Assembly: GCA_965220655.1 (NCBI GenBank)
Contig: CBDCQO010000012.1
Location: 102,931-166,930 of the forward strand
DNA length: 64,000 bases
Reading direction: 5' to 3'
Source of the DNA: Dehalococcoidia bacterium
GTDB taxonomy: Bacteria; Chloroflexota; Dehalococcoidia; Lucifugimonadales; Australimonadaceae
The position numbers and the translations under genes were made by a program. Under the pieces are notes generated by a model that saw only the letters and a list, made by a program, of their open reading frames with translations, did not search any database and was not told the origin of the DNA. Below, piece after piece: positions 1-15,322 of the stretch (the first letter of the stretch is position 1; the number at the start of each line of letters is the position of its first letter).

Positions 1-1700
1 CGAAGCACGGGCGGGCGCCCGCCAGTTACCCTCACCCCGACCTGCAGGAGATCCTGAACGAGACGTACGGGGTGATCGTCTACCAGGACCAGGTGCTCCA
101 CATCATGCGGCAGTTCGCGGGCTATTCGCTCGGCGAAGCGGACGTGGTGCGGAAGGCGATGGGGAAGAAGATCGCCTCGCTGATGCAGCAGGAACGCGAG
201 AGCTTCGTTGCGGGGGCACGGGAGAAGGGCTACGACGAACCAACCGCCGCCGCGGTCTTCGACCTGATCGAGCCGTTCGCGGGGTACGCGTTCAACAAGG
301 CGCACAGCGTGAGCTACGCCGTTGTCGCGTACTGGACGGCGTACTTCAAGGCGAACCACCCTGTGGAGTTTATGACGTGCGTCCTGAACGCGTACCAGGG
401 GAACGACCGGATGGGCCCCGCGGTTGCGGAGTGCTTGCGGCTGGGGATACCGGTACTGCCGCCGGACGTGAACCGGAGCGGCGTGGACTTCAGCGTGGAC
501 TGGGCGGACGGCGGCCGGGAGGCCGTGCGGTTCGGTCTTGCCTCGATCAAGAACATCGGGGCATCCGCGGTGGCGGAGCTGGTGGCGGAGCGCGATGAGA
601 ACGGCCCGTTCCAGTCGCTGGAGGACTTCTGCAGGCGCGCCGGGTCGGAAGCCGCGAACCGGCGCGTGGTGGAAAGTCTGGCGAAGGTGGGAGCGCTCGG
701 CGCTTTCGGGTCCCGGGGGCAACTCACTGCGGGCGCAGACAACATCGTCCACCTGATGCAACGGGAGGCACGCCTGCGCGACAGCGGCCAGTCCACGATG
801 TTCGACATGTTCGGCGCATCTGCGCCAACGCCCCTGGCGGAGATCGAGCTGCTGCCCGCGCCCGAACCGTCGGTACGGGAACTGGTCGCTTGGGAACGTG
901 AACTGATAGGCGTCGCGCTGGGGCATCGCGTGCTGGATCCGGTGAACGCGCCTGCAGGCGCGGCCCTCTCTCGCGAGGAGGTGGAGGCGTGCGCGGACGG
1001 AGACAAGGTGGTGCTGGCGGGCGAGGTAGCGTCGGTGCGTATCAGGCCGGACAAGCAGGGCAGGCAGATCTGCTTCGTGGGCTTGGAGATATTCGACGGC
1101 TCTGTTCTGGACGTGGCCGTCTGGAGCCGCGTGTTTGAGAAGACCGCCGAGCTGTGGGTAGAGGGCAATCTGGTGCAACTGAAGGGAGTGGTGCGTCACC
1201 GGGGGGACGAGACCTCGATACATTGCGACGAGGCGCTCGAGTTCGAACTCGCGGAGACGCCGGCCGACCCGCAGCCTGCTTCCGTGGCCGCCCCTGCCAC
1301 TCCAAAGGTAGAGGAGTGGAAACCGCCTGTAGAGGAACATGGGAGCGCGCTGTCGCATCCCCCTGCCAACGGCGTGGAGCCGGACTCGACGAATGGAACT
1401 GCGCACCACGAGGAGGGTCCATCAGTTGGCAGCCTCGATGAGGGGCAGCGCAAGGTCCTCGTGAAGATGAAAGAGACGGACCAGCCTTCCGAGGACAATC
1501 GCCTGCTCAAACTGGTGCTGCAGACGTTGATGGACTACCCCGGCACAGATGAGGTTGACCTCGTCATCGAGAGCGGGGGTCAGTTCTGGCGTATCAGCAT
1601 GCCGATCATCCGTACGCAGTACAGCGATGAGCTCGCAGCGCACGTCAACGGGATGTCGGACGCAGGCTTGAAGGTAGAGCTGGAGAGTACGGCAGCCTGA
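1..1700 (+). CDS. dnaE: DNA polymerase III alpha subunit, C-terminal part (5' end lies outside the window)
   Basis: Frame 3 is open from base 3 with no upstream stop. HPDLQEILNETYGVIVYQDQVLHIMRQFAGYSLGEADVVRKAMGKK and FAGYAFNKAHSVSYAVVAYWTAYFKANHP are conserved DnaE blocks. An OB-fold-like block VVLAGEVASVRIR follows. Stop TGA at 1698-1700. Confidence 0.93.
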   Translation, partial: KHGRAPASYPHPDLQEILNETYGVIVYQDQVLHIMRQFAGYSLGEADVVRKAMGKKIASLMQQERESFVAGAREKGYDEPTAAAVFDLIEPFAGYAFNKAHSVSYAVVAYWTAYFKANHPVEFMTCVLNAYQGNDRMGPAVAECLRLGIPVLPPDVNRSGVDFSVDWADGGREAVRFGLASIKNIGASAVAELVAERDENGPFQSLEDFCRRAGSEAANRRVVESLAKVGALGAFGSRGQLTAGADNIVHLMQREARLRDSGQSTMFDMFGASAPTPLAEIELLPAPEPSVRELVAWERELIGVALGHRVLDPVNAPAGAALSREEVEACADGDKVVLAGEVASVRIRPDKQGRQICFVGLEIFDGSVLDVAVWSRVFEKTAELWVEGNLVQLKGVVRHRGDETSIHCDEALEFELAETPADPQPASVAAPATPKVEEWKPPVEEHGSALSHPPANGVEPDSTNGTAHHEEGPSVGSLDEGQRKVLVKMKETDQPSEDNRLLKLVLQTLMDYPGTDEVDLVIESGGQFWRISMPIIRTQYSDELAAHVNGMSDAGLKVELESTAA

Positions 1701-2210
1701 TCAGGCGAGCGCCGCTTCCAGATTCAGCAGACGCGCTTTCATCTGCAGACCGGGGCCGCCGAACCCGTGCAGCCCGCCGTCCTTGCCGATCACGCGATGG
1801 CACGGGATAACGAGGGGGATGCGGTTCCGCGCCATGGCCTGACCTGCGGCGCGCACGGCTTTGATGTTTCCAGCGGAGGCTGCGAGCCACTCGTAGGTGC
1901 GCGTCTCTCCGGGAGGGATGGAGCGGCACGCATCCCATGCGCGGCGGAAGAAGGGGGCTACGCCGTCCAGGTCCAGGGGCACGTCCCATGTGGGGGCGTC
2001 GCCCTTCAGGTACGCCTCGAGTTGGGTGCGGTAGGCGTTGAACGCGTCCGGCACGTGCTCGGGGAGCGGGGCCCGCATACTGCGTTCCAGGTCGTCCAGG
2101 GCGCGATCGGGAGACGGCTCCGGGAGAGTGGCGTAGCGGATGCCCTTTTCCGATCCGGCGACTGCCACCCACCCCCAACCGGTCTCAAATACGTCGTAGT
2201 ACAGTTCCAT
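1701..2210 (-). CDS. ogt: Methylated-DNA--protein-cysteine methyltransferase
   Basis: 169 aa with the PCHRV active-site motif (IPLVIPCHRVIGKDG). Its stop codon directly abuts the dnaE stop. Confidence 0.9.
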   Translation of the reverse strand: MELYYDVFETGWGWVAVAGSEKGIRYATLPEPSPDRALDDLERSMRAPLPEHVPDAFNAYRTQLEAYLKGDAPTWDVPLDLDGVAPFFRRAWDACRSIPPGETRTYEWLAASAGNIKAVRAAGQAMARNRIPLVIPCHRVIGKDGGLHGFGGPGLQMKARLLNLEAALA

Positions 2211-2375
2211 CCGGCCGTGCCTCCTCGCTCAGCGTGCGGCAATTGTAAAGTATGGGGCGAGTGTTCGACAGACACGAAGCCGTGGTGTGCAGGATTTCAC
2301 ACGGGCACGCAACATTTGGTAGAGTTGCGGATGAGTCGTCGGAGGCTCGCCAATCCTGAGTAGGGGAGAAGCTAC

Positions 2376-2714
2376 ATGGATCTCAAGAGTACACGGGAAG
2401 GCTCGAATCTGATCGTGGACGTGGAAGGGCGCGTGGACGGGACGAACGCGATGGACTTCCAGACCGCGCTCGAGGGAGCAATCCAACCGAGTGACCAGGG
2501 CGTCATCATGGACATGGGGCAGTTGCAGTACATCAGCAGCGCGGGCCTTCGTGTCATCCTCCTGGTTGCCAAGTCGCTCCAGAAGCAGAACGCCAAACTG
2601 CTGGGGTGCTCTCTCTCTGAATCTGTCCGAGAGATATTCGCCATCAGCGGGTTCGACAAGATCGTACCGGTGCACGACTCCCGGACAGATGCGCTGAAGG
2701 CGCTCGAAGACTAA
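2376..2714 (+). CDS. STAS-domain anti-sigma-factor antagonist (SpoIIAA/RsbV-like)
   Basis: 112 aa. The block MGQLQYISSAGLRVILLVAK resembles the phospho-serine region of SpoIIAA-type proteins. A GGGGAG SD lies upstream. Confidence 0.85.
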   Translation: MDLKSTREGSNLIVDVEGRVDGTNAMDFQTALEGAIQPSDQGVIMDMGQLQYISSAGLRVILLVAKSLQKQNAKLLGCSLSESVREIFAISGFDKIVPVHDSRTDALKALED

Positions 2715-2811
2715 ACCTCAGGGTCGGGACCAACCTGGGGTCGGCACTGAATCGTCAGCCGGCGCCGGGTGGTTATTCAGGCTGCCCGCGAAGAACAGAC
2801 GCGAGGAGACG

Positions 2812-3984
2812 ATGTCTGAATCAGAAGGGGAAGCGTACAGGATACTGGTGGTTGACGACGAACCCGACGTAGAGCCGTTGATGCTACAGCGGATGCGGCG
2901 TCACATACGGTCCGGGCGCTACTCGTTCGTCTTCGCCCAGAACGGGATCGAGGCGCTCGATGTGCTCAACAGCGATCCGGAGATCGATATGGTGGTCTCG
3001 GACATCAACATGCCCAAGATGGATGGGCTGACGCTGCTGTCCCAGATATCGGAGTTGAACCCTGATCTCCGTGCGGTCATCGTCTCTGCCTACGGAGACA
3101 TGAAGAACATCCGCACCGCGATGAACCGCGGTGCGTTCGACTTCGTTACCAAGCCGCTCGACTTCGATGATCTGCAGGTGACGATAGAGCGCACGCTGGA
3201 GAACATGAAGGCGTGGAAGGAGGCGCTCTCCTCCCGTGACAAGCTGGTGTCGCTGCAGCGGGAGTTGGACGTGGCGAGCCAGATGCAGCAGTCGATCCTC
3301 CCGACGCAGTTCCCGCGCGGGGACGATTTCGAGGTATTCGGGAGCATGGAACCGGCGCGCAACGTTGGTGGGGACTTCTTCGACGTTGTGCTCCTGGATG
3401 ACGGCCAGATCGGCCTGGCCATCGCGGACGTGTCGGGCAAGGGCGTGCCGGCAGCGCTGTTCATGATGTCCAGCCGTACGCTGTTGAAGGGCTCTGCCAT
3501 CGGCCTGACTGAACCGGGGAAGGTGCTCCGGGAGGTGAACAATCTCCTCGCTGAGGACAACGAGTCCGCCATGTTCGTCACGGTGCTGTACGCGGTTTAC
3601 GACCCTGCGACCGGACACCTCTCCTACGCTAATGGAGGCCACAACCTGCCTGTGATCTTCCATAGCGACGGTAGTTGCACGGTGCTCCCTTACACAGAAG
3701 GGCTCGCATTGGCCGTCCTGGCGGGCGTCGAATTCGTGGAAGGGGAACTTACCCTGGCACCGGGCGATACGCTGGTCCTGTACACGGACGGTGTGACGGA
3801 GGCTATGGACGCGGTGAATGAAGAGTTCGGGATGGAGCGTCTGCAGGCGGTTTTCGCAGGGGGTGCGCCACAGAGCGCGGAGGCTGCGAACGAGGCGGTG
3901 TTCGCGGCTGTTCGAGAGTTCGTAAGTGGAGCGCCACAGTCGGACGACATCACATGTCTGACTCTGAGGCGTCGGGGAGCGTAG
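2812..3984 (+). CDS. Response regulator receiver fused to PP2C/SpoIIE-type serine phosphatase (RsbU/HsbR-like)
   Basis: Receiver blocks ILVVDDEPDV and VSDINMPKMDGL. Phosphatase blocks GGDFFDV, ADVSGKGVPAALFM, YTDGVTEA and SDDITCL. GAGGAG SD upstream. Confidence 0.9.
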   Translation: MSESEGEAYRILVVDDEPDVEPLMLQRMRRHIRSGRYSFVFAQNGIEALDVLNSDPEIDMVVSDINMPKMDGLTLLSQISELNPDLRAVIVSAYGDMKNIRTAMNRGAFDFVTKPLDFDDLQVTIERTLENMKAWKEALSSRDKLVSLQRELDVASQMQQSILPTQFPRGDDFEVFGSMEPARNVGGDFFDVVLLDDGQIGLAIADVSGKGVPAALFMMSSRTLLKGSAIGLTEPGKVLREVNNLLAEDNESAMFVTVLYAVYDPATGHLSYANGGHNLPVIFHSDGSCTVLPYTEGLALAVLAGVEFVEGELTLAPGDTLVLYTDGVTEAMDAVNEEFGMERLQAVFAGGAPQSAEAANEAVFAAVREFVSGAPQSDDITCLTLRRRGA

Positions 3985-3986
3985 GC

Positions 3987-4406
3987 ATGAGCAACGGGCT
4001 GGCCCTGACACTCGAGACGCGTCCCGAGGAGCTGGAACGGCTGACCGCTGCGATCGAAACGCTAGCCGAGCAGGACAACTGGCCTGCCGCGCTGACGTTC
4101 AGGGTGAACCTCGTCCTGGAAGAGCTGGTGCTCAACGTCATCAACTATGCCTATGACGAGGACGGGCACCATCTGGACGTTGAGCTTACGTGCAACGAAG
4201 AAGACCTGGTCATTGAGATCACGGACGAAGGGAAGCCCTTCGATCCGCTGCACGATGCCCCTGAACCGGACATGGAATCGCCGATGGAGGAACGCCGCAT
4301 AGGTGGATTGGGCGTTTACCTGGTGCGGACGATGACCTCCGACATGCAATACCGGCGGGAGGATGGCAAGAACCGCATGACCGTTGCCATGTCGAGGGAT
4401 GGATGA
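3987..4406 (+). CDS. RsbW/SpoIIAB-like serine protein kinase (anti-sigma-type HATPase)
   Basis: Motifs EELVLNVINYA, ITDEGKPFDP and GGLGVYLV. The ATG at 3987 follows a GGGGAG SD. An in-frame ATG at 3954 is an alternative start. Confidence 0.8.
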   Translation: MSNGLALTLETRPEELERLTAAIETLAEQDNWPAALTFRVNLVLEELVLNVINYAYDEDGHHLDVELTCNEEDLVIEITDEGKPFDPLHDAPEPDMESPMEERRIGGLGVYLVRTMTSDMQYRREDGKNRMTVAMSRDG

Positions 4407-5698
4407 AACGCGTGCCGCGTTCCGGGCGTACGCCCGGGTACATCGCAGCACTCTTCATCGTCGCGGGGCTGATTGGCTGTAACGGCGATGCAACAGCGTT
4501 GCCTACCCCTACTCCGCATCACGAGAAGGCTACCGCGACGCCGACCCCGGTAGACACGGGGACGCCCGGCGTGACCGATGATCAGGTACTGTTCGGACAG
4601 TCCGCTGCATTCAGCGGCCCGGCCGAGGAACTCGGTACCAACATGCGGCTGGGCATCCGGGCGGCGTTCCACGAAGCGAACCGGGCGGGGGGCGTACACG
4701 GGCGCTCACTGGAGTTGATCTCGCTGGATGACTCCTATGAACCAGAGAAAGCGGTTACGAACACGCTTCAGTTGATAGAGGATGAGCGTGTGTTCATGCT
4801 GATGGGAGCAGTGGGGACGCCTACGTCACGCTCCGCTACCCCCGTGTCCGTATCGGCGGGTGTACCCTATCTCGCGCCGTTCACAGGAGCGGAGTTCCTG
4901 CGAACCCTGGGGCCGGAGAACGTGATCAACGTCCGCGCCTCGTACAACCAGGAGACGGAGGAGATGGTCGAGCGTCTGACCAAGGACCTGGGCATCACGC
5001 GGATAGCGGTGATGTACCAGGACGACTCCTTCGGCCGCGCAGGCTACCAAGGGGCGGTAGACGCACTCCGGCGCAGAAACATGTCTCCGGTGGGCATCGG
5101 GCTGTATACGCGCAACACGACGGCGGTGAAGACCGCGCTGTTGGATATAGAGCGTTCGCTTCCCGAGGCAGTAATCATGGTAGGCGCCTACGAACCGGTG
5201 GCAACCTTCATCAGATGGGCGCGGCATATCGGGATGGACGTGCAGTTCATCAACATCTCCTTCGTCGGCAGCAACGCGCTGGCGCGGGAGCTCGGTCCCG
5301 ATGGCGCCGGAGTGTTCGTAACACAGGTGGTGCCTTTCCCGAACGATCTGTCGCAGCCCGTCGTGCGGGCTTACCGGAGTGCGCTCTCGTCGTATGACTC
5401 GAGTGCGGTGCCGGGCTTCGTATCGCTCGAAGGATACCTGGCAGGGCGTCTTGCGATAGCAGGGCTGGAAGGTTGTGGCCGTGACCTCACCCGCCAGTGT
5501 TTCCTGGATAGCCTGACCACTCCCGACATGATCGACCTGGATGGGTTCCGGCTGGGTTACGGGGAAGACGATAACCAAGGCTCAGATACGGTGTTCCTGA
5601 CCGTGCTCGGGCCTGACGGAGCGTATTATCCGATCCAGGCACTGGGGGACTTCCAGTTGCTGCAGGAAACCTGGGCGTTGCAGGACGTCGAGCCATGA
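4403..5698 (+). CDS. Lipoprotein, type-1 periplasmic binding fold (Leu/Ile/Val-binding-protein-like SBP)
   Basis: Lipobox AALFIVAGLIGC is followed by a Pro/Thr tether and then an SBP body (VLFGQSAAFSGPAEELG...). ATGA start/stop overlaps occur at both ends (4403-4406 and 5695-5698). Confidence 0.85.
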   Translation: MKRVPRSGRTPGYIAALFIVAGLIGCNGDATALPTPTPHHEKATATPTPVDTGTPGVTDDQVLFGQSAAFSGPAEELGTNMRLGIRAAFHEANRAGGVHGRSLELISLDDSYEPEKAVTNTLQLIEDERVFMLMGAVGTPTSRSATPVSVSAGVPYLAPFTGAEFLRTLGPENVINVRASYNQETEEMVERLTKDLGITRIAVMYQDDSFGRAGYQGAVDALRRRNMSPVGIGLYTRNTTAVKTALLDIERSLPEAVIMVGAYEPVATFIRWARHIGMDVQFINISFVGSNALARELGPDGAGVFVTQVVPFPNDLSQPVVRAYRSALSSYDSSAVPGFVSLEGYLAGRLAIAGLEGCGRDLTRQCFLDSLTTPDMIDLDGFRLGYGEDDNQGSDTVFLTVLGPDGAYYPIQALGDFQLLQETWALQDVEP

Positions 5699-7989
5699 TT
5701 CAACCACTCAGGTTCTTCAGATTGCCATCGCGCATATCCACACAGCTGCAGTTGGTGATCGCGGGAGCGGTTGCCCTCACGCTGGCTGCCAGTGTCGTGG
5801 GCTGGTTCTCGTTCACCCGGGTGAGCGAGGCGCAGAGCCTTGTGAATGACGCCAGCCTGCCGGAGATCACGACGGCGTTTCACGTGGCGGAGTCCGCCAA
5901 CGTGTTGGTGGCGGCGGCCCCGCGGTTGACGTCCGCCGAGGTGGAAGACTTCGCGGAGGTGGTGGCTGAGATCAACCAGGCGCACGGGGCATTCGAAGAA
6001 GAACTGGCTGCGCTGGAGGCTCAGGGGAGCGAGGAGGAGCGCCTCAATAGCATCCGTGAACAGGCAGACAGGCTGGTCGCCAATATCGATACGATCAAAT
6101 CGGAGATGCCGGATGTCTTCGCGCTGGAAGCTCGCAGCGATATTCTCCGGCAGGACCTGACGGCGGTCCAGGACGAACTTGACGGAGTCCTGATCCCGGC
6201 GCTGGATGACCAGCTCTTCTACCTGATGACGGGCTACACCAGCCTCGACGCGCCTCCTGTTTCGTCTGAGGAGTCCTTCTCCGGTGATCAGATCATCGAA
6301 TACCGGCGTCTCGCAGAGTTGCAGGGAGCCCTCAGCATCGCGGCGCAGGTGCTGGCAAGCGCCTTCACCGTCTCCGAGCCGGCGCTGGTAGAGCCGCTAC
6401 GGGAGCGGTTCGAGGCAGAGTTCGCCGCATTCAGGGGCGCTGAGAGCACGTTCCTGGGGCAGGTGAGTGAAGACCTGTTGGCGTCGCTTACCCCCCTGGC
6501 TGACCGACTCTACGACCTCGGTCTGGGTGAAGAGGAGGGAGGTTTCGCTCTGGTTCAGAGCGGGTTGGAGCTCACTGAGCGGCAGCGTGAGTTGCTCGCC
6601 CTCAACCGCACCATCGCGATCGAACTCGTGGAAGAGGTGGACAGTCTGGTCAGCGTGGCGAACCAGCATGCGGAGGCGGCGACACTCTCGTCCGACCAGT
6701 CCATCCGCACCGGGCGCCAGCTCCTTATCGCGATCGGCATCGTGAGTGTGACAGGAGCGCTGCTCATCGACTGGCTCTTCGTGTGGCGGGTACTGCTTCG
6801 GCGGCTGGCGTTCCTCTCTAACCGGATGCGCCGGATGGCCGGGGGCGAACTGGAGGAGGAAGTGGTCGTGAAGGGCCGGGACGAGGTAGCGGACATGGCT
6901 GCGGCGCTGGAAGTATTCCGCCGGAACGCCCTGGAGGTACAACGGCTGAACCTGGTTGAGCACCTGGCAGAGGAGTTGCGGGAAAAGAACGACGAGTTGG
7001 AGTCTGCGCTTTCAGATCTGGACAAAGCGCAGGACCAGATCGTCATGCGGGAGAAGCTGGCCGCGCTCGGTGAGCTGACCGCTGGAGTTGCCCACGAGAT
7101 CAGGAACCCGCTGAACTTCGTCAAGAACTTCTCAGAAGCGTCGGCAGAATTACTGGTGGAGTTGAAGGAAGCGGTCGATGACACCGGCGATGCGTTGACG
7201 GAGGACCAGAAGCAGTACATCGAGGAGATATCCGCCGATCTGATCGGCAACCTTCAGCGTATCCAGTCGCACGGCGAGCGAGCGAACCGCATCGTCCAGG
7301 ACATGCTGATGATGGGCAGAGGCGGGGGCGAAGCGCGTCCTATCGACATCAACGACCTCGTCAACGAACATGCCTCGCTGGCCTACCACAGCGCCCGGGC
7401 GCTGGACCCGGACTTCCAGCTCACCATCCGGCAGGAGTTCGATCCGGATGCCGGCGAGGTGGAAGCTATCCCCGGCGACCTTGGCCGCGTCTTCCTGAAC
7501 ATGGTGAGCAACGCCTGCTACGCCGTGGACGAGAAGCGGAAGCAGAGGGAAGCGGCAGGGGACAGGGACTACATGCCCGAGGTTACGCTGAAAACGAAAC
7601 GCACAGACGAATCGGTGGAAGTGCGTATCAGGGACAACGGGAGCGGAATACCCCAGGAGGCCATCGACAAGATATTCAATCCGTTCTTCACCACCAAGCC
7701 CACCGACAAGGGAACAGGGCTGGGGCTTGCGATCTCGAACGACATCGTCCGCCAGCATGGCGGAACGATAGCGGTTACGTCAGAGGCGGGCGAGTTCACC
7801 GAGATGCTGGTGACGCTGCCATTCAGGTACCCGGTGGTAACTGCTGAACACGAGGACGATGCCAGCGGTGACGATGACGCCAATGATGACGACGAAGCCG
7901 AGGGCGTTTCTGAGAGCGTCGACGATGAGGAGGATGACACAGGAGAGGGGCCGGACGAGGAGGCTGAAGACGACGGCGAGGCAGGCTAG
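5695..7989 (+). CDS. Sensor histidine kinase (TM, large extracytoplasmic helical domain, TM, HAMP, HisKA, HATPase) with an acidic C-terminal tail
   Basis: H-box AHEIRNPLNF, N-box NMVSNACYAV, G-boxes DNGSGIP and GTGLGLAIS. A HAMP-like segment follows TM2. The last ~46 residues are almost entirely Asp/Glu/Gly. Confidence 0.9.
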   Translation: MIQPLRFFRLPSRISTQLQLVIAGAVALTLAASVVGWFSFTRVSEAQSLVNDASLPEITTAFHVAESANVLVAAAPRLTSAEVEDFAEVVAEINQAHGAFEEELAALEAQGSEEERLNSIREQADRLVANIDTIKSEMPDVFALEARSDILRQDLTAVQDELDGVLIPALDDQLFYLMTGYTSLDAPPVSSEESFSGDQIIEYRRLAELQGALSIAAQVLASAFTVSEPALVEPLRERFEAEFAAFRGAESTFLGQVSEDLLASLTPLADRLYDLGLGEEEGGFALVQSGLELTERQRELLALNRTIAIELVEEVDSLVSVANQHAEAATLSSDQSIRTGRQLLIAIGIVSVTGALLIDWLFVWRVLLRRLAFLSNRMRRMAGGELEEEVVVKGRDEVADMAAALEVFRRNALEVQRLNLVEHLAEELREKNDELESALSDLDKAQDQIVMREKLAALGELTAGVAHEIRNPLNFVKNFSEASAELLVELKEAVDDTGDALTEDQKQYIEEISADLIGNLQRIQSHGERANRIVQDMLMMGRGGGEARPIDINDLVNEHASLAYHSARALDPDFQLTIRQEFDPDAGEVEAIPGDLGRVFLNMVSNACYAVDEKRKQREAAGDRDYMPEVTLKTKRTDESVEVRIRDNGSGIPQEAIDKIFNPFFTTKPTDKGTGLGLAISNDIVRQHGGTIAVTSEAGEFTEMLVTLPFRYPVVTAEHEDDASGDDDANDDDEAEGVSESVDDEEDDTGEGPDEEAEDDGEAG

Positions 7990-8007
7990 CGAACGGGAGC
8001 AGGGAGC

Positions 8008-9441
8008 ATGAACTTCGACTCCTATAACCTCGACGCTGCCATCTACGACGAGATGCTGCTGGCGGACGGGTCGCCGCGGGAGCACTCCCAGCAGCTTTAC
8101 GAGACGTTGCTGAGCCTCTCCCCCGAACGCTTGGGCAGCGTCCAGGAAGGAGTAGCCCGCTCTTTCCTGCACGAAGGGATCTTCTTCACGGTCTACGGAG
8201 ACGAGGAGGCCCAGGAACGGATCATCCCTGTGGACTGCGTGCCGCGAGTGCTTTCCGCATCAGAATGGACGTTGCTCGATTCAGGACTCGCCCAGCGCCT
8301 GCGTGCGCTCAACCGTTTCATCGATGACGTCTATAACGGCGCACACGCCATCGCCGACGGGGTGATCCCCGAAGACCTCGTCATCGGATGCCCGAACTAC
8401 CGTCCGGAGATGCTGGGCTACTCTCCTCCGGAAGGGGTCTGGGTGGGTATCTGCGGGTCGGACCTCCTTCGGACGCACGACGGCTTCTTCGTGCTGGAGG
8501 ACAACCTCCGGTCGCCTTCCGGCGTGTCGTACATGATTGCGACCCGCAACGCGGTGAAGGCGGGCTTGCGGCGGCTGTACCGTGCATCGCGTGTGCGGGA
8601 GGTCGAGCACTACGGGAACCTGCTGCAGCAGACGCTGAGTGAACTGGGGCCGAGGGGCAATCCCGACCCTACTATCGTGCTGCTGTCGCCGGGGGTGTAC
8701 AACGCGGCCTTCTACGAGCATATGTTCCTTGCCCATGAGATTGGGGCGGAACTGGTTGAAGGACGCGATCTGCTGACGCGCGACGGTTTCGTGTACATGC
8801 GAACGACCGTGGGGCTTCGCCGGGTAGACGTCATCTACCGCCGGGTGGACGACCTGTTCTTGGACCCGTTCGCCTTCCGTCCGGACTCGATGCTGGGCGT
8901 GCCGGGCCTGCTGGACGCGTGCAAACGCGGCAACGTCACGCTGGTCAACGCTCCGGGGGTCGGCGTTGCCGACGACAAGAGCGTCTACCCCTACGTGCCG
9001 GACATGATCCGCTATTACCTCGGCGAAGAGCCGATACTCGGCAACGTGGAGACGTACCTGTGCCGGCGCCCCGCCGATCTGGAGTACACGCTGGACAACC
9101 TGGACGAGCTGGTGGTGAAGCGGGTGGGCGAGTCCGGCGGGTATGGAATGCTCGTCGGGCCGCATGCCACACCCCAGGAGCGTGAAGAGTACGCGGAGCA
9201 GGTGCGGGCGAACCCGGCAGATTTCATCGCGCAGCCGGTGTTGACGTTCTCCCGTGCGCCCTGCCTTGTGGATGGCGAGCTGGAGCCGCGCCACGTTGAC
9301 CTCCGACCCTTCATCCTCCAGGGTCGCGAGACGCGGATCGTGCCGGGGGCCTTCTGTCGCGTGGCGCTGCGCCGCGGGAGCCTGGTGGTGAACTCCAGCC
9401 AGGGCGGGGGCGGCAAGGATGTCTGGGTACTGGAAGAGTGA
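8008..9441 (+). CDS. Circularly permuted ATP-grasp type 2 family protein
   Basis: 477 aa. Blocks VDVIYRRVDD, LVNAPGVGVADDKSVY and VVKRVGESGGYGM match my recollection of this family. It starts 18 nt after the kinase stop, and no hairpin lies between them. Confidence 0.8.
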   Translation: MNFDSYNLDAAIYDEMLLADGSPREHSQQLYETLLSLSPERLGSVQEGVARSFLHEGIFFTVYGDEEAQERIIPVDCVPRVLSASEWTLLDSGLAQRLRALNRFIDDVYNGAHAIADGVIPEDLVIGCPNYRPEMLGYSPPEGVWVGICGSDLLRTHDGFFVLEDNLRSPSGVSYMIATRNAVKAGLRRLYRASRVREVEHYGNLLQQTLSELGPRGNPDPTIVLLSPGVYNAAFYEHMFLAHEIGAELVEGRDLLTRDGFVYMRTTVGLRRVDVIYRRVDDLFLDPFAFRPDSMLGVPGLLDACKRGNVTLVNAPGVGVADDKSVYPYVPDMIRYYLGEEPILGNVETYLCRRPADLEYTLDNLDELVVKRVGESGGYGMLVGPHATPQEREEYAEQVRANPADFIAQPVLTFSRAPCLVDGELEPRHVDLRPFILQGRETRIVPGAFCRVALRRGSLVVNSSQGGGGKDVWVLEE

Positions 9442-9446
9442 GGCGG

Positions 9447-10412
9447 ATGCTCTCTCGAAGCGCTCAAGGGATCTATTGGATGGGCCGTTATCTCGAGCGG
9501 ACCGAGTGCATGTGCCGCCTGCTGCAACTCCAGACGGAGGCACTGGTAGACCGTCCTGCGCGCGACATATACGTCGGATGGCGCAGGCTCTACGGCGTGC
9601 TGCGCCGGATACCGCCGGGAGGCGCGCTGGCTCTCCCCGAGGGCGACGATTTCACGCTTGCGGACTCATACACGCTCGCCGGGGACCTGACCTTCGAGCG
9701 TTCGAACCCGGACTCGGTGTGGAACTGCTTCGCCCAGGGCAGGGAGAATGCACGGCAGATGCGCCATTGCATCAGCGGGGAGATGTGGCAGCGTCTCAAC
9801 CTCGCCTACCTGCGCCTTCGCGATATGGAGATAGAGGATATATGGATAGCGCTGCCGGAAGGCTTCTACGCAGGGTTGGCTGCCGAGACCGACGCGTTCG
9901 ACGGCGCTGCCCAGGCGACCATGTACCGTGACGAGGGCTGGAGCTTCCTACGCCTGGGCGGGTTCATCGAGCGGGCGCAGTTCGCGCCTGCCCTGCTCTT
10001 GCAGCAGTTGGCCATAGATGCGGAGAGCGACGGCTATGCGGAGGAAGACTGGGCGAGCCTGCTGGAGGCCTCCCATGCGCTGGAGGTGTACAACCGGCGC
10101 TACGGGGCTGCAGTGCACCCGGCCGCTGCGCTCGACCTGCTGGCAACGGACCCTCTGTTGCCCGGTTCAGTCTACAGGTCGCTCAAACAGATCTCAGGAG
10201 AGTTTGCAACGCTCGGAGCGGGCCCCGGAGCGGACTCCGGGTATGCGGCCCAGCGGCTCATAGGACGGCTGCTCTCACTCATGCAGAACGAGTGGCCGGA
10301 CAGCAGGGACCGTGAGGGTTTGCTGCGCCGGGTCCTGAGCGAGGCAACGAACCTGCACTTCATGATCAACGAGGCCTACTTCGACTATCCGCTCACCGTT
10401 CGTGCCGAGTAG
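9447..10412 (+). CDS. Alpha-E domain protein (partner of the CP ATP-grasp)
   Basis: Begins MLSRSAQGIYWMGRYLERTE, the typical alpha-E N-terminus. A GTG at 9438 that overlaps the upstream stop is an alternative start. Confidence 0.8.
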   Translation: MLSRSAQGIYWMGRYLERTECMCRLLQLQTEALVDRPARDIYVGWRRLYGVLRRIPPGGALALPEGDDFTLADSYTLAGDLTFERSNPDSVWNCFAQGRENARQMRHCISGEMWQRLNLAYLRLRDMEIEDIWIALPEGFYAGLAAETDAFDGAAQATMYRDEGWSFLRLGGFIERAQFAPALLLQQLAIDAESDGYAEEDWASLLEASHALEVYNRRYGAAVHPAAALDLLATDPLLPGSVYRSLKQISGEFATLGAGPGADSGYAAQRLIGRLLSLMQNEWPDSRDREGLLRRVLSEATNLHFMINEAYFDYPLTVRAE

Positions 10413-10462
10413 GGTGCGCGGAGTTCAAGCCTGTCCCTGAGAATCCCGCCAGGAGCGCAACG

Positions 10463-12772
10463 ATGACCGAAGCACTCGCCCGTATCAGTTCCGGCAGGCC
10501 GTGGATCACGATAGGCGTGTGGTTGCTGCTCGTGCTGGTTGCCCTCGGAATCGTTGGTCAACTACTCCCGACCGCCACTACCACTGAACTCCGCATCATC
10601 CCGAGGTTCGGCGAAGTTGGTTCGGTGACAGCCAGTGAACTGCTGGAAGGCAGCCCGATCGAGCCTCCGCCCGCTGAGATCGTCATCGTTCATTCGGGAA
10701 CGTTGACGGTGGACGATAACGCATTCAAAGCGAAGGTCCAGGAGGTCACGGGCAAGCTCCGGGAGTTGGAGCCTGAAGTCATACAGGCCAGCACGAACTA
10801 CTACGAGGTCCTGGACACCACTCCGCTGGACTCCCTTGCCCTGGTCTCAACGGACCGCAGAAGCGCCATCGTGGCGGTCCAGATGACCGGCACGCTCGGT
10901 GAGGCGCTGGAGAACATCGAAGAGGTCATCCACGTCGTGGAGGAGGCGGATGGCAAGGACGGCTTCGACGTGCTCATCGTGGGCGACGTGAGCAGCCGTT
11001 TCGAGCAGGCGGAACTGTCGGCTATGGACCTGGAGCAGGGTGAGCGATTCGGTCTCCCGGTAGCACTCCTCATCCTCCTGGTACTGTTCGGCGCTGTCGT
11101 GGCGGCGCTGATACCCGTCGGACTGGCCATCATTTCGATCCTCGTCACGCTGTCAATCGTGGCGGTTATCGGCAACATCTTCGGCGAGCTGGTCTTCTTC
11201 GTGCTGCTGTGGATCACGATGATCGGCCTTGCGGTAGGGATCGATTACAGCCTCATCGTGGTGTCCCGCTTCAGGGAGGAGCTGGCTCGCGGCGTGAGCG
11301 CGCGGGACGCGGTCATCAAGGCCGGGGCGACGGCAAGCCGCACGGTGTTATTCAGCGGCATGACGGTAGTCATCGCACTGCTCGGCGTGTTCATCGTTCC
11401 GCACACCCTGTTCTTCGCGACCGGCCTGGGCGCGATCCTGGTGGTCATCGTTTCGGTCATGGCGACGCTTACCTTCCTGCCAGCGGTGCTCACTGTGCTG
11501 GGGCCGCGCGTCGATCTGTTGCGGCTTCCGTTCCGCCGGAGCACGGCTGCCACGTCTTCAAGAGAGCAACGTGAGGGTTTCTGGGAGTTCATCACGCGGA
11601 AGACGATGCGCTACCCCGTTATCAGCATCCTCGTGGTCGGCGGGCTGATGGTCTGGGCGTCGGTGAACTACTTCGGCATCAACACCGGCTTCAACAGCGT
11701 CGAGACGTTCCCGGAGGACTCGCACACACGCGAGGCGTTCACGGCGCTGGAAGAAGACTTCCCGCTGGGGTACGGCTCGGCGAACCCAGCCAGGGTGGTT
11801 ATCGAGGGCGATATCAATGACCCGGCGGTTGCGGCTGCGGTGCAGACGTTCAAGCGGTCCGTAGTCGGCGATCCTGCGGTTACCGAAGCGCTGCAGAAGA
11901 TCCAGCAGGCCGTGGAGAGCGATCCGGCTCTCATCGCAGCACTATTGCAAAGCAACCCGGAGATACTCAACGACCCGTCAGCTGCTGCGCTTCCGACGAA
12001 CACGCACGGCAATCTCACCGTGATCGCTATACCGGTGCCCGGCGCTCCCAGCAGTGTGGATGCGTTCGACCTGATAGAGCGGCTGCGGGACGAGTACATC
12101 CCTGCGGCGTTTGCGGGTGTCCCGGCAGAGGCGCACGTGGGCGGCATCTCGGCCGAGTACCTTGACTTCGATACGCAGCTCAGGGCCTACCTCCCCATCA
12201 TATTCGCGTTCATCCTCGGCGTGAGCTTCATCCTGCTCCTGGTGGTCTTCCGCTCCATCGTCATCCCCATCAAGGCGATCATCATGAACCTGCTCTCGGT
12301 CGGCGCCGCCTACGGGTTGATGGTGCTCGTGTTCCAGAAGGGCGTGGGGGCAGACCTGCTCGGGTTCCAGCAGGTCGAGACGATAGAGGCGTGGCTCCCG
12401 CTCATCCTGTTCGCCATCCTCTTCGGGCTGTCCATGGACTACCACGTCTTCATGCTGAGCCGTATCCGCGAGCGCTACGACCAGACGCACGACAACGCCG
12501 AATCAGTGGCGTACGGCCTGCGCTCGACCGCAAGCCTCATCACGGGCGCTGCGCTCATCATGGTGGCCGTGTTCAGCGGCTTCGCCTCGGGTGACATGGT
12601 CGTGAACCAGCAGGCGGGGTTCGGGCTTGCGGTAGCCGTCCTGCTGGACGCGACCCTGGTGAGGAGCATCCTCGTTCCGGCGAGCATGCAGCTGCTCGGC
12701 GCGCGGAACTGGTACCTGCCGGGATTCCTCAACTGGCTGCCCCAGATACAGGTGGAGGCCGAGGAAGACTAG
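10463..12772 (+). CDS. MMPL/RND-superfamily membrane transporter
   Basis: 769 aa with two repeated halves, each a TM bundle plus an extracytoplasmic domain. Motifs GIDYSLIVVSRFREE and GLSMDYHVFMLSRIRE. Confidence 0.88.
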   Translation: MTEALARISSGRPWITIGVWLLLVLVALGIVGQLLPTATTTELRIIPRFGEVGSVTASELLEGSPIEPPPAEIVIVHSGTLTVDDNAFKAKVQEVTGKLRELEPEVIQASTNYYEVLDTTPLDSLALVSTDRRSAIVAVQMTGTLGEALENIEEVIHVVEEADGKDGFDVLIVGDVSSRFEQAELSAMDLEQGERFGLPVALLILLVLFGAVVAALIPVGLAIISILVTLSIVAVIGNIFGELVFFVLLWITMIGLAVGIDYSLIVVSRFREELARGVSARDAVIKAGATASRTVLFSGMTVVIALLGVFIVPHTLFFATGLGAILVVIVSVMATLTFLPAVLTVLGPRVDLLRLPFRRSTAATSSREQREGFWEFITRKTMRYPVISILVVGGLMVWASVNYFGINTGFNSVETFPEDSHTREAFTALEEDFPLGYGSANPARVVIEGDINDPAVAAAVQTFKRSVVGDPAVTEALQKIQQAVESDPALIAALLQSNPEILNDPSAAALPTNTHGNLTVIAIPVPGAPSSVDAFDLIERLRDEYIPAAFAGVPAEAHVGGISAEYLDFDTQLRAYLPIIFAFILGVSFILLLVVFRSIVIPIKAIIMNLLSVGAAYGLMVLVFQKGVGADLLGFQQVETIEAWLPLILFAILFGLSMDYHVFMLSRIRERYDQTHDNAESVAYGLRSTASLITGAALIMVAVFSGFASGDMVVNQQAGFGLAVAVLLDATLVRSILVPASMQLLGARNWYLPGFLNWLPQIQVEAEED

Positions 12773-12791
12773 CCGAGGAACCGGCGCGCTC

Positions 12792-14261
12792 CTATCCGAG
12801 AAAGCGACGGATAAGGGCGGCCTCTTCGATGAAGTGCCGCGTCCGGGAGGTGCGGTTCCGCACGAGCCCTGCCCAGACCGCCGTGGTCAGCCCTTCGTGG
12901 ACGCGGTCGATCTCCTGGGTGAAGCGTACGAACAGCCGCCGGTAGTCGTCGCCGAGGAGTTGCGTGATGCGCGTCTCGTTCGAGAAGCGGAGGGCGGCGC
13001 TGAGGTCTTCCTGGAGGCTGGGGTAGACCTCGCGCAGGTAGGCGAAGTCGTCCTCGTTGAGCGCGGCGAGCCCGAGCAAGTCCGGGGGCACGCCGATGGA
13101 GTAGAGCGTGGCCGCGAATGCGATGGCGCGCGGAAGGGCCACGTCCTCCGCGCCCGGAAGCGTGCGCCCGTAGCCGAAGAGACCGACGTGCAGTTTGCGC
13201 TCCCGCCTGCGCGGTATGTGAGCGGATACGGAGGCGATGGTGGGGGCGAGCTTACGCACCTGTTCCTGGTAGGCCGCTGCTGCCCTGTCGATGATGTCGT
13301 TGACGCGTGCCTCGTCAACCGGCGGAGCGGGTTGGCGCTCGTACGCGTGGAGCTGCGCGATGGCGTCGACCACCTGCTCGCGGGGGTAGTCGAACTTGAA
13401 CGCAGACTGCACCGTGAGCGTCTGTACGCTGGGGTATTCACGGAAGATGCGGTCCACGTTCACGGGGGAGAGGTGCCCCCGGAAGGGCGCCGAGCCTGCA
13501 CCGATGATGGGATAGAGAGGGATGCCCAGTTCGCCCTCAAGGCGGTCCAGCCGGGCGAGGGCGGCCTTGAGCATCAGTTCGGCGCCGACGATGCCGTTGT
13601 TCAGCGCAGGGTCGCTCCGGGCGAGGAAGACACGCTGGTACTCGACCTCCCACCCCTGCAGATATTCCCGGACGATGTCGTCCACCGTCATCATCTGCTC
13701 TCGCTCTTCGAAGAGCGGGATGACGCGGATGTGCTTGGGGTAGAAGTCGCCTATCCAGTCGCTGACGGTGCTTCCGTCCGGCAGATGCCTGCTCTCCTGC
13801 CCAGCGATGAACTGGGCGTAGTAGTCCCGCACCTTCACTATCTGCGCGGCGTTGGTGGTGAAGGGAAGGATGACTTCCTGGATGGGGGGTTCGAGGTCGC
13901 CCTCGTAGAACTCGTTCGCGACGTCGTAGGCGATGGGGATGCCCTGGAGCGCTTCGACGAGGAGCTTGCGCATCTCCAGTTCGATGGAGGGATTCGGGAC
14001 GCGGAGGGTGATGAGGGCGTCGCGCCCCAGTTTCATCTCTTCAGAGAAGTAGCCGGGATAGTGACTGAGCAGTTTCTGGATGACGTGCGTGTCGGTGTCC
14101 TTGCCCTCGGAGTCCCACATCTGCTCGTCGCATCCGAGCGCCAGTACATCGGCGGCTTCGATGATCTCGCCGTCGCCCTTGATAACGCCGTCGATGGCGT
14201 AGGCGGGGGCCTCCGCGTTGTCCGGGTGCTGGGTGCTCATCACTCGCGGGATCAGGGGCAC
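12792..14261 (-). CDS. ppcA: Archaeal-type phosphoenolpyruvate carboxylase
   Basis: N-terminal IPRVMSTQHPDN signature. The ~490 aa size is typical of PepcA-type enzymes rather than ~900-aa bacterial Ppc. Confidence 0.85.
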   Translation of the reverse strand: MPLIPRVMSTQHPDNAEAPAYAIDGVIKGDGEIIEAADVLALGCDEQMWDSEGKDTDTHVIQKLLSHYPGYFSEEMKLGRDALITLRVPNPSIELEMRKLLVEALQGIPIAYDVANEFYEGDLEPPIQEVILPFTTNAAQIVKVRDYYAQFIAGQESRHLPDGSTVSDWIGDFYPKHIRVIPLFEEREQMMTVDDIVREYLQGWEVEYQRVFLARSDPALNNGIVGAELMLKAALARLDRLEGELGIPLYPIIGAGSAPFRGHLSPVNVDRIFREYPSVQTLTVQSAFKFDYPREQVVDAIAQLHAYERQPAPPVDEARVNDIIDRAAAAYQEQVRKLAPTIASVSAHIPRRRERKLHVGLFGYGRTLPGAEDVALPRAIAFAATLYSIGVPPDLLGLAALNEDDFAYLREVYPSLQEDLSAALRFSNETRITQLLGDDYRRLFVRFTQEIDRVHEGLTTAVWAGLVRNRTSRTRHFIEEAALIRRFLG

Positions 14262-14336
14262 GGCATGAACCTCCTTCGTGTCGGGGGCATGATACTCGCA
14301 TGGACATTCCAGCGGGCAGCATGGGGTTATGTTTCG

Positions 14337-15233
14337 TTACAGGGTGCGTTGGATAAAGCCGGCCTTCCGGCGCCATCGCGTGTTCACCTTCACCCATAGT
14401 TCGAGAAAGGCGGGACGCCCCGTGAGCGCTTCGATCTCAGGACGCGCAAGGACACCGACCTCCTTGAGCGCCCCTCCTCCCTTGCCGATGAGGAGCCGCT
14501 TCTGGGAGGGCGTGTCAACGTAGACCACTGCCCGGATGTAGTCAGGCGATTCTCGCTCGCGCTCCTCGAATGTAACGACTTCCACGGCTGTGTCGTACGG
14601 GACCTCGTGGGCGTAGTGTTCGAAGATCTTCTCGCGGACGAGTTCACCCACGAGGAAACGTGTCGTGCGGTCGGTGAGCATCTCCGGCGGGAAGAGGGCG
14701 TCCTGCTCCGGCAGATGCGCACCTATCGCTTCTGCGAGAGGGGCCAGCCCGTCGCGTCCGAGAGCGCTCACGGGCACGATCTCGGCGAATGGGTGGGTTT
14801 CGGAGTAGCGCGCCATGACCGGGAGCAGCTTCTGCTTGGCGATGGTGTCGGTCTTCGTGAGCACGAGCAGCGCGGGCACATCCACGGAGGCGATCTGATC
14901 GATGAGCGCCTGCTCGACATCGCCGGGATAGCGTGGTTCGGCGGCGAGAACGATGGCATGGGCGTCGCCGAGCGCGCCGGAGAGCTGGCGGGCCATCGCA
15001 GCGTCGAGCTGGTCGCGGCCTTTCCGAAGGAACCCCGGCGTATCGATGAGGGCGGCCTGGAAGTCCTCGCCGTTCAGGATGCCGAGCAGCCTGTGACGGG
15101 TCGTGTGGGGCTTCGCGCTCACGATGGACAGTTTCTGCCCGAGCAGGGCGTTCAGCAGCGTGGACTTGCCCACGTTCGCCCTCCCGACGATGGCCACGAG
15201 CCCGCTGCGAAAGTTGGTAATTCGGCTGCTCAC
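14337..15233 (-). CDS. era: GTPase Era
   Basis: G1 GRANVGKST, G3 DTPG, G4 TKTD, and a C-terminal KH-like region. 298 aa. Confidence 0.93.
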   Translation of the reverse strand: MSSRITNFRSGLVAIVGRANVGKSTLLNALLGQKLSIVSAKPHTTRHRLLGILNGEDFQAALIDTPGFLRKGRDQLDAAMARQLSGALGDAHAIVLAAEPRYPGDVEQALIDQIASVDVPALLVLTKTDTIAKQKLLPVMARYSETHPFAEIVPVSALGRDGLAPLAEAIGAHLPEQDALFPPEMLTDRTTRFLVGELVREKIFEHYAHEVPYDTAVEVVTFEERERESPDYIRAVVYVDTPSQKRLLIGKGGGALKEVGVLARPEIEALTGRPAFLELWVKVNTRWRRKAGFIQRTL

Positions 15234-15322
15234 ACTTCAAGCATACTCGCTCGGAGAAGTCGGTGACTCTGGGGTCTCCCGCTGTGTATAGTGACTGTGC
15301 CGCGGTTTATTCGCGGGCGACG

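Follow-up and report, generated by a model that had tools for sequence, protein, structure and literature searches.

The 64,000-nucleotide (nt) stretch of DNA from a Dehalococcoidia bacterium analyzed here (hereafter the window; contig CBDCQO010000012.1, positions 102,931 to 166,930) carries at 2376–12772 a row of eight co-directional genes, in which a sensory cassette of five genes precedes the genes for an ATP-grasp amidoligase, an alpha-E protein and an MMPL-family transporter. Our analyses indicated that this cluster is probably one nitrogen-linked signal-to-effector unit composed of separable modules. The components are all of known kinds, and it is their combination that appears to be new. 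An earlier reading of the same DNA (the original prediction) had proposed that the eight genes form a single signal-to-effector unit; conserved linkage upholds this for the cassette together with the ATP-grasp and alpha-E genes, and extends weakly to the transporter gene. The host assembly is 2.8 Mb in size and 93% complete, and the window sits on its contig C12. The features of the array are:

2296–2325, plus strand: promoter-like site (TTCACA, 18 nt, TAGAGT, with TG), a match to consensus only.
2376–2714, plus strand: single-domain STAS protein, anti-sigma-factor-antagonist in type, 112 residues (Pfam STAS, E 2.9e-18; NCBIfam ant_ant_sig, 73.8 bits, above the cut-off).
2812–3984, plus strand: REC-PP2C, a receiver (residues 11–125) joined to a PP2C/SpoIIE domain (residues 196–388) (Pfam Response_reg, 2.4e-24; SpoIIE, 6e-55).
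3987–4406, plus strand: RsbW-like GHKL serine kinase of the anti-sigma type, 139 residues (Pfam HATPase_c_2, 1.6e-24, 86.8 bits against a cut-off of 27.4).
4403–5698, plus strand: solute-binding protein (SBP), a lipoprotein of the type I LivJ, or amino-acid-amide (HAAT), kind (Pfam Peripla_BP_6, 2.2e-53).
5695–7989, plus strand: membrane histidine kinase (HK) with HAMP, HisKA (H467) and HATPase_c domains (Pfam).
8008–9441, plus strand: circularly permuted (CP) ATP-grasp amidoligase (Pfam CP_ATPgrasp_2, 9.5e-151, 502 bits; PDB 3N6X, E 5e-160).
9438–10412, plus strand: alpha-E protein (Pfam Alpha-E, 2.7e-60, 205 bits).
10463–12772, plus strand: MMPL-family RND transporter, paralogue A (Pfam MMPL, 1.7e-83, 280.8 bits, in two stretches).

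The first five of these genes form one conserved cassette found across many phyla. A species-level survey, with one genome per species and the kinase alignment as the query, returned approximately 49 loci with a full-length kinase relative (41–59% identity). By their record titles these belong to Chloroflexota, Gamma- and Alphaproteobacteria, Acidobacteria, Acidimicrobiia, Thermodesulfobacteriota, Latescibacterota and others. Sponges seem to be the habitat of many carriers, and the uncultured marine lineages of Dehalococcoidia among which the window falls likewise appear largely sponge-associated. Among 53 loci with both the SBP and HK genes, the PP2C gene was present in 50 and the STAS and RsbW-like genes in 48 each, with the order nearly always kept. 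These counts bear out the view of the original prediction that the partner-switching trio belongs with the binding protein and kinase. Some cassette loci (L046, L049, L069, L077 and L078) have two or three STAS genes, and a gammaproteobacterial clade has its STAS gene or genes 3′ of the kinase on the opposite strand.

The proteins of the trio have the features expected of a partner switch. In 55 cassette STAS proteins, the motif around the phosphorylatable serine (Ser54 or Ser55 in the window protein), YISSAGLR, shows conservation of at least 90%. The RsbW-like protein matched the NCBIfam RsbW and SpoIIAB equivalog models weakly, below cut-off, and by sequence appears to be of the RsbW/SpoIIAB type and not an orthologue. 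Its open reading frame (ORF) is open from an ATG at 3954 (3954–4406), an alternative start; the ATG at 3987, 2 nt past the PP2C stop, is the likely start, yielding the 139 residues also seen in relatives (the orthologues at loci L029 and L026). The REC-PP2C protein is the likely partner of the HK, because it carries the only receiver domain in the cluster.

Judged from its sequence and hydropathy, the SBP begins with a signal peptide and a lipobox (LIGC), followed by a Pro/Thr-rich tether of approximately 30 residues (4403–4570); the lipobox and tether would fit membrane anchoring in a single-membrane (monoderm-type) cell. Its nearest solved structure is 4KV7, approximately 45% identical by eye over the printed binding-domain alignment and far ahead of the next match. 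The best 120 relatives in the protein search were all metagenomic. The source of 4KV7, a cultured marine planctomycete, may be a cultivable carrier of the cassette.

Hydropathy placed two transmembrane (TM) segments in the HK, TM1 at approximately residues 14–40 and TM2 at approximately 340–368, with an outside domain of approximately 300 residues between them. An AlphaFold2 model of residues 1–420 was all-helical, with a mean predicted local distance difference test (pLDDT) score of 88.7. When the sensor model was searched against the PDB with Foldseek, the top six matches were TorS sensor domains (target-normalised TM-scores of 0.65–0.86), three of them from entries of the TorS-TorT complex. 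The best NCBIfam match was also TorS, at 158 bits against a cut-off of 676. Pfam gave HAMP, HisKA and HATPase_c only, with no receiver or histidine phosphotransfer (HPt) domain in the HK. Based on the predicted TorS-like sensor fold, on the ATGA overlap of the SBP and kinase genes and on the presence of the pair in 53 of 53 loci, the kinase is plausibly SBP-dependent, as had been originally suggested. The C-terminus of the HK (window 7850–7989) is a poly-acidic, D/E-rich tail of approximately 46 residues, which lies outside the alignments to distant orthologues (coverage 0.92–0.94) and looks lineage-specific.

Linkage of the cassette to the ATP-grasp gene recurs well beyond the window. It was assessed in 201 genomes of the order and in 301 genomes of the phylum, with two candidates scored per genome in each sample; presence and absence counts in the order sample are lower bounds. 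HK and ATP-grasp genes were both found in at least 65 genomes of the order sample and were adjacent (no more than 250 nt apart when co-directional) in 27 of the 65, across 11 families. The phylum sample added 14 adjacent cases among 23 further Chloroflexota genomes with both genes. Among the cross-phylum species representatives, the ATP-grasp gene lay within 10 kb of the kinase in approximately 16 of 49 loci. Chance alone was estimated to give approximately 0.7% per genome (a 20-kb span in a 3-Mb genome), against the 33–60% observed. In 29 co-directional loci the median distance from the HK stop to the ATP-grasp start was 19 nt.

At least four gene orders were observed: cassette followed by ligase genes, ligase genes followed by cassette (Acidobacteria and Gammaproteobacteria), convergent and divergent. 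On a tree of the HK, adjacency switches state at least 12 times, and at least nine of these switches are forced by well-supported branches. In the phylum sample, every genome with an ATP-grasp protein at least 65% identical to that of the window also had the HK (24 of 24), even where the two were unlinked, and approximately 55 genomes with a 40–59% identical ATP-grasp protein had no HK; hence one branch of ATP-grasp is dedicated to the cassette and travels with it. Within the genus, five species retain the full set of eight genes with the same flanks, and in divergent species of the genus and in another family of the order the genes from STAS through alpha-E are kept and the flanks differ. The arrangement goes beyond chance, as many genomes with unrelated flanks share this order. 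The survey of cassette and ligase co-occurrence that the original prediction had called for found a link conserved over families, classes and phyla, with spacing typical of operons and in more than one gene order. One divergent locus (L119, in genome G044, 4455–13383) has Amt, transglutaminase, alpha-E and ATP-grasp genes on one strand and STAS, SBP and HK genes on the other; its cassette is reduced, the STAS and SBP genes leaving no space between them for REC-PP2C and RsbW.

An unbiased view of the partners was obtained by clustering all ORFs of the 53 SBP-HK loci without prior labels. After the five core genes, the most frequent neighbor families were ATP-grasp (21 loci), alpha-E (20 loci), the ammonium transporter Amt (15 loci) and a transglutaminase-like family (11 loci), and no other specific neighbor family occurred in more than five of the 53 loci. 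Alpha-E, for which no solved relative was found by sequence, accompanies ATP-grasp in 20 of the 21 loci. An ABC ATPase, a polyprenyl synthase, a DUF502-like protein and an acyl-CoA synthetase, names that come from reading the sequences and not from a Pfam scan, were considered as partners and set aside as generic or rare (five loci or fewer, except for the ABC ATPase).

The same neighbors suggest nitrogen as the strongest functional clue to the cluster, one that was not raised in the original prediction. On the marine-subtype model TIGR03644, the Amt from array relatives reached 507.5 bits, slightly short of the 514-bit cut-off. A marine-type Amt gene lies between the ATP-grasp and alpha-E genes at L030 (10242–11627) and also at L031, L036, L043, L045, L047, L059, L114–L117, L120, L121, L123 and L124, and so splits a pair that is translationally coupled in the window. 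In loci where the ligase genes are absent, this Amt gene instead flanks the cassette. Loci L120, L121, L123 and L124, from several families, have a co-directional row of nine genes: STAS, PP2C, RsbW, SBP, HK, ATP-grasp, Amt, alpha-E and transglutaminase. In addition, an AmtB-type gene stands directly 5′ of STAS at L034 (5367–6584) and likewise at L040, L055, L059, L122 and L125. The position beside amtB is usually occupied by glnK, and with the genome’s own PII proteins as queries no PII gene was found in approximately 105 cassette, ligase or Amt loci.

The genome of the window has its marine-type Amt gene at C12:575149–576453, unlinked to the cluster. The neighbors of this gene (a hydrolase-like ORF and, by sequence reading, an arginyl-tRNA synthetase and a chromate-transporter-like gene) were considered as a clue and were uninformative. 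The transglutaminase-like gene, which is found 3′ of alpha-E in L029, L027, L030, L042, L120–L124 and L126, is also absent from the window’s array, and the genome has only a 30% identical paralogue (C12:963709–964467). No Anbu family was seen among the recurrent neighbors of the 53 loci, in an analysis that included no search aimed at Anbu. Published data on related genes point in the same direction. When nitrogen is limiting, the ATP-grasp/alpha-E/transglutaminase cluster of Burkholderia cenocepacia depends strongly on both NtrC and sigma-54 (PMC5491218). Passages of PMC5666114 and PMC6376114 cite the result that nitrogen limitation induces the Anbu operon in Pseudomonas putida, and in marine metagenomes the domains of the trio co-vary with urea genes (PMC3597751).

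ORF calls, Pfam domains and direct reading of the junctions all supported the original description of eight plus-strand genes with spacings of −4 to 97 nt. The spacers are 97 nt between STAS and PP2C, 18 nt between HK and ATP-grasp, and 50 nt between alpha-E and MMPL. ATGA overlaps join the RsbW stop to the SBP start (4403–4406) and the SBP stop to the HK start (5695–5698), exactly where the original prediction had placed them, and the ATP-grasp stop and the GTG start of alpha-E share GTGA (9438–9441). Two refinements of the earlier spacing list are needed: at the PP2C/RsbW junction one start gives a 2-nt gap and the other a 31-nt overlap, and the overlap at 9438 uses GTG. The 18 nt between the kinase and ATP-grasp genes had been described as free of a hairpin; this was correct, the predicted folds of the HK/ATP-grasp and alpha-E/MMPL junctions being no stabler than those of shuffled sequences (z +1.0 and +2.0, respectively). 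The promoter-like site at 2296–2325 is the sole such match on the plus strand within 1600–13200 and lies in the 165-nt gap between the divergent ogt and STAS genes, making it a candidate promoter for the whole array. No terminator-like site was found on the plus strand in 1600–13200, and an Rfam scan of window positions 1–16000 gave zero family matches.

The flanks of the array begin upstream with the 3′ end of dnaE and the divergent ogt. At the other end, an archaeal-type phosphoenolpyruvate (PEP) carboxylase gene on the minus strand (PEPcase_2, E 5e-166; 12792–14261) converges with the MMPL gene, their stops 19 nt apart, which agrees, as does the 50-nt alpha-E to MMPL distance, with the array end originally described. 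The PEP carboxylase is 94–99% identical in close relatives. Farther on, 3′ of era, is a gene for a protein with seven RCC1_2 repeats (15263–16594), which at 60–85% identity in relatives is conserved much below the level of the neighbor genes.

The sigma factor content of the genome limits what the partner switch could act on. No sigma-54 gene was found in the 93% complete assembly, and the only sigma-70-family genes in the whole genome are those for RpoD (C12:54031–55749) and two proteins of extracytoplasmic function (ECF) size (C8:224706–225287 and C2:84303–84959). Three such genes are a very small repertoire for a 2.8-Mb genome. No SigB/F-like sigma factor was identified in the genome, with the limit that the assembly, being incomplete, could lack one, and no sigma factor family was among the recurrent neighbors of the 53 cassette loci. 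On this evidence, the genome offers no classical SigB/F partner and no basis for NtrC-type control. HsbA is an established case of a STAS protein with partners other than sigma factors (PMC6482189).

Based on these observations, we propose that the SBP would capture an extracytoplasmic solute, presumably a nitrogen-containing compound, and would dock on the TorS-like helical sensor predicted for the kinase. The HK would then set the phosphorylation of the receiver of REC-PP2C, the sole receiver in the cluster. From what is known of these families, the PP2C phosphatase and the RsbW-like kinase would in turn set the phosphorylation of STAS on its conserved serine. The second module is the dedicated CP-ATP-grasp/alpha-E branch, presumably co-transcribed with the cassette or else adjoining it, to which relatives add the transglutaminase-like gene and marine-type Amt; in the window’s genus the array is without the transglutaminase and Amt genes and has gained MMPL after alpha-E. 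With both sigma-54 and a SigB/F-like sigma factor missing from the genome, the output is most likely a protein-protein switch by STAS or RsbW on a non-sigma target, and the ligase pair plus Amt would be the prime candidate for this target or for co-regulation.

A more specific form of this proposal is PII-independent, phosphorylation-based nitrogen control. The sensor would read an external nitrogen compound, STAS or RsbW would gate the marine Amt and/or switch on ATP-grasp/alpha-E, the ligase would use imported ammonia as its amine, and the transglutaminase-like protein would pass on or release the amide nitrogen. We regard this detailed scheme as improbable at present, and any STAS-Amt interaction is speculation.

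Several points weigh against reading the cluster as a nitrogen-linked unit. Co-transcription of the array is deduced from spacing alone. The link to nitrogen comes from gene neighbors and from expression data on Proteobacteria rather than on this organism, and many of the relatives, being metagenome bins, could carry mistaken taxon labels. The genome also keeps PII genes and a canonical amtB-glnK pair elsewhere (C12:534425–535979), so nitrogen control is not exclusively via the array. A sigma factor could be hidden by the incompleteness of the assembly. Finally, in roughly half of the genomes with both, the cassette and ligase genes are unlinked (38 of 65 in the order sample, 20 with the genes far apart on one contig and 18 with them on different contigs), and 25 of the 53 cassette loci have no ATP-grasp or Amt gene within 10 kb, so that the cassette may act on a different target or on a broader one.

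These last two counts also support an alternative in which the cassette is a general regulator with its true output elsewhere (an ECF or unrecognised sigma factor, a different transcription factor or a second-messenger enzyme), and the ligase, Amt and MMPL genes merely share a nitrogen or stress regulon with it or were transferred together with it, with no direct action of STAS or RsbW on them. Classical RsbW-type proteins do bind sigma factors and the genome has two of ECF size. However, the unbiased clustering put no sigma gene in the cassette neighborhoods, there is no SigB/F-like factor in the genome, and both the 19-nt median spacing and the strict co-occurrence with one ATP-grasp branch point beyond loose co-regulation; we consider this alternative unlikely, yet a serious one. 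Much harder to sustain is the idea that the juxtaposition is meaningless, i.e., that three unrelated units hitch-hike on one transferred island or are pressed together by genome compactness. The cassette and the ATP-grasp branch look horizontally spread, the ATP-grasp protein being 61–78% identical across phyla, so that a single ancestral fusion could have been copied, and short spacers are common in small genomes. Yet island transfer or compactness would have to account for at least four gene orders, for adjacency that changes at least 9–12 times on the HK tree, for flanks that differ between lineages, for co-occurrence that persists where the genes are unlinked, and for the 33–60% observed against an expected 0.7% per genome, and we judge it very improbable.

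The place of the MMPL gene in the proposed nitrogen-linked unit is a separate question. Hydropathy revealed multiple hydrophobic segments in the protein, as found in two-repeat transporters of approximately 12 TM segments, and the NCBIfam models MmpL3, actII, HAE3 and HpnN all matched below cut-off. Of the 201 genomes in the order sample, 129 have MMPL homologues, for the most part at a distance from the array. Most related arrays have no MMPL gene, the alpha-E gene being followed by the transglutaminase-like gene or by nothing, and divergent species of the same genus (L024–L026) also lack it after alpha-E. MMPL is thus a lineage-specific accessory and not a core component, and its inclusion as a general member of the array, as originally conceived, does not hold.

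Nevertheless, MMPL could be the effector end of the unit, exporting or acting with the product of ATP-grasp/alpha-E under control of the partner switch. A tree of the family has two well-supported clades, of which paralogue A includes the window gene; genomes G197 and G044 keep paralogue A elsewhere, approximately 100 kb away in G197. In family f60 and at L036 it is paralogue B that follows alpha-E co-directionally, and in families f13 and f59 paralogue B is convergent beside the array. Two different paralogues have therefore come to lie directly after alpha-E in two lineages, taking the place of the transglutaminase-like gene in both of these co-directional cases, and the 50-nt alpha-E/MMPL spacer of the window has no terminator. 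Such two or three independent recruitments are more than expected by chance, and the presence of MMPL is not purely incidental. In contrast, in f60 and L036 a non-coding spacer of approximately 450–590 nt (L114:12852–13438, L115, L116 and L036:16104–16696) separates alpha-E from MMPL-B. This spacer is 80% conserved, in only four closely related genomes, had no transglutaminase remnant or Rfam match, and may be a leader or promoter region allowing separate transcription of MMPL. Nothing is known of a lipophilic ligase product and, with the rarity of MMPL in the arrays of relatives, we consider a role as the effector end doubtful; some real functional tie of MMPL to the array is tentatively possible, but still on the unlikely side.

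The genes for CP-ATP-grasp, alpha-E and transglutaminase-like proteins are widespread and have been catalogued since 2008–2009 without a substrate or role, and the published hypotheses on their role remain unconfirmed (PMC6376114). Our analyses tie a dedicated branch of these ligases to a sensory input (an SBP and a TorS-like kinase), a phosphorylation switch and an ammonium transporter. This narrows the search for the role of the ligase to nitrogen supply, with the SBP ligand, STAS phospho-mimics and ammonia as a candidate substrate as handles. The cluster also adds a partner-switching system without a sigma factor. The cassette seems to have passed from phylum to phylum, and it may be relevant to the handling of host ammonium by symbionts. 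Were the PII-independent scheme to be true, the orphan Anbu-operon system would gain a biochemical role, and marine and sponge-associated bacteria without NtrBC and sigma-54 would have a new form of Amt regulation. In the literature searched, we found no account of a TorS-like, SBP-dependent input to a REC-PP2C partner switch that lacks a sigma factor and is tied to an amidoligase and Amt.

Parts of the cluster resemble several known systems. Compared with modules of the RsbV/RsbW/RsbU type, the STAS protein, RsbW-like kinase and PP2C are all present, whereas a cognate SigB/SigF-like sigma factor was not found. RsbY has the REC-PP2C architecture. The order of signaling in the RsbK-RsbY-RsbV-RsbW-SigB system of Bacillus cereus, from a histidine kinase to a REC-PP2C and then to a STAS antagonist opposed by RsbW, is the same as that proposed here. 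However, B. cereus RsbK, described in PMC4574943, is a hybrid kinase with its own receiver and no binding-protein partner, in place of which the window has a TorS-like sensor and an SBP. The output of that system, SigB, is encoded in the same locus, in contrast to the window, where there is no sigma gene nearby and no SigB-like gene in the genome.

The HptB-HsbR-HsbA system of Pseudomonas aeruginosa and CrsR-CrsA of Shewanella (PMC6482189) are similar in that the phosphorylation of a STAS protein depends on a receiver-PP2C protein together with a serine kinase, and the non-sigma partners of HsbA are FlgM and the diguanylate cyclase HsbD (PMC6482189). In HsbR and CrsR the kinase/anti-sigma domain is fused to the REC-PP2C, whereas in the window it is a separate gene. 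Their input arrives through Hpt from hybrid kinases, compared with the SBP-dependent kinase proposed here, and their outputs are motility, biofilm formation and RpoS, with no link to a ligase or Amt.

For the input, the closest parallel is the TMAO sensor TorT-TorS (PDB 3O1H, 3O1I, 3O1J, 3I9W and 3I9Y), in which the gene for a binding protein likewise lies beside that for a kinase with a long, all-helical outside domain built as a double four-helix bundle. TorS is the archetypal kinase that depends on a binding protein. The HK sensor is only 13–14% identical in sequence to TorS sensor domains, and the SBP is of the LivJ/HAAT kind (Peripla_BP_6) and not of the TorT type. TorS is a hybrid kinase with a receiver and HPt domain that signals to the DNA-binding TorR, whereas the window kinase is without both and the receiver is on the PP2C. 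Judging from the model, the HK is TorS-like at its sensor end and not a TorS orthologue.

With regard to the output, the system of CP-ATP-grasp, alpha-E and transglutaminase-like proteins, with or without Anbu, has been described by Iyer et al. (2009) and by Valas and Bourne (2008), as summarised in passages of PMC5666114 and PMC6376114. The ATP-grasp and alpha-E proteins of the window are clear members of this system, their genes are translationally coupled, relatives have the third gene, and the association with nitrogen limitation is shared in kind. The proteobacterial system is under NtrC and sigma-54 control (PMC5491218), whereas here there is no sigma-54 and the genes stand behind a partner-switching cassette; in many relatives, Amt is inserted between ATP-grasp and alpha-E.

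The presence of Amt in these arrays also invites comparison with AmtB-GlnK. The two designs have the same outline, an ammonium transporter gene paired with one for a small signaling protein whose covalent modification carries information. They differ in the nature of that protein, which in the relatives of this array with a gene beside Amt is not PII but STAS.

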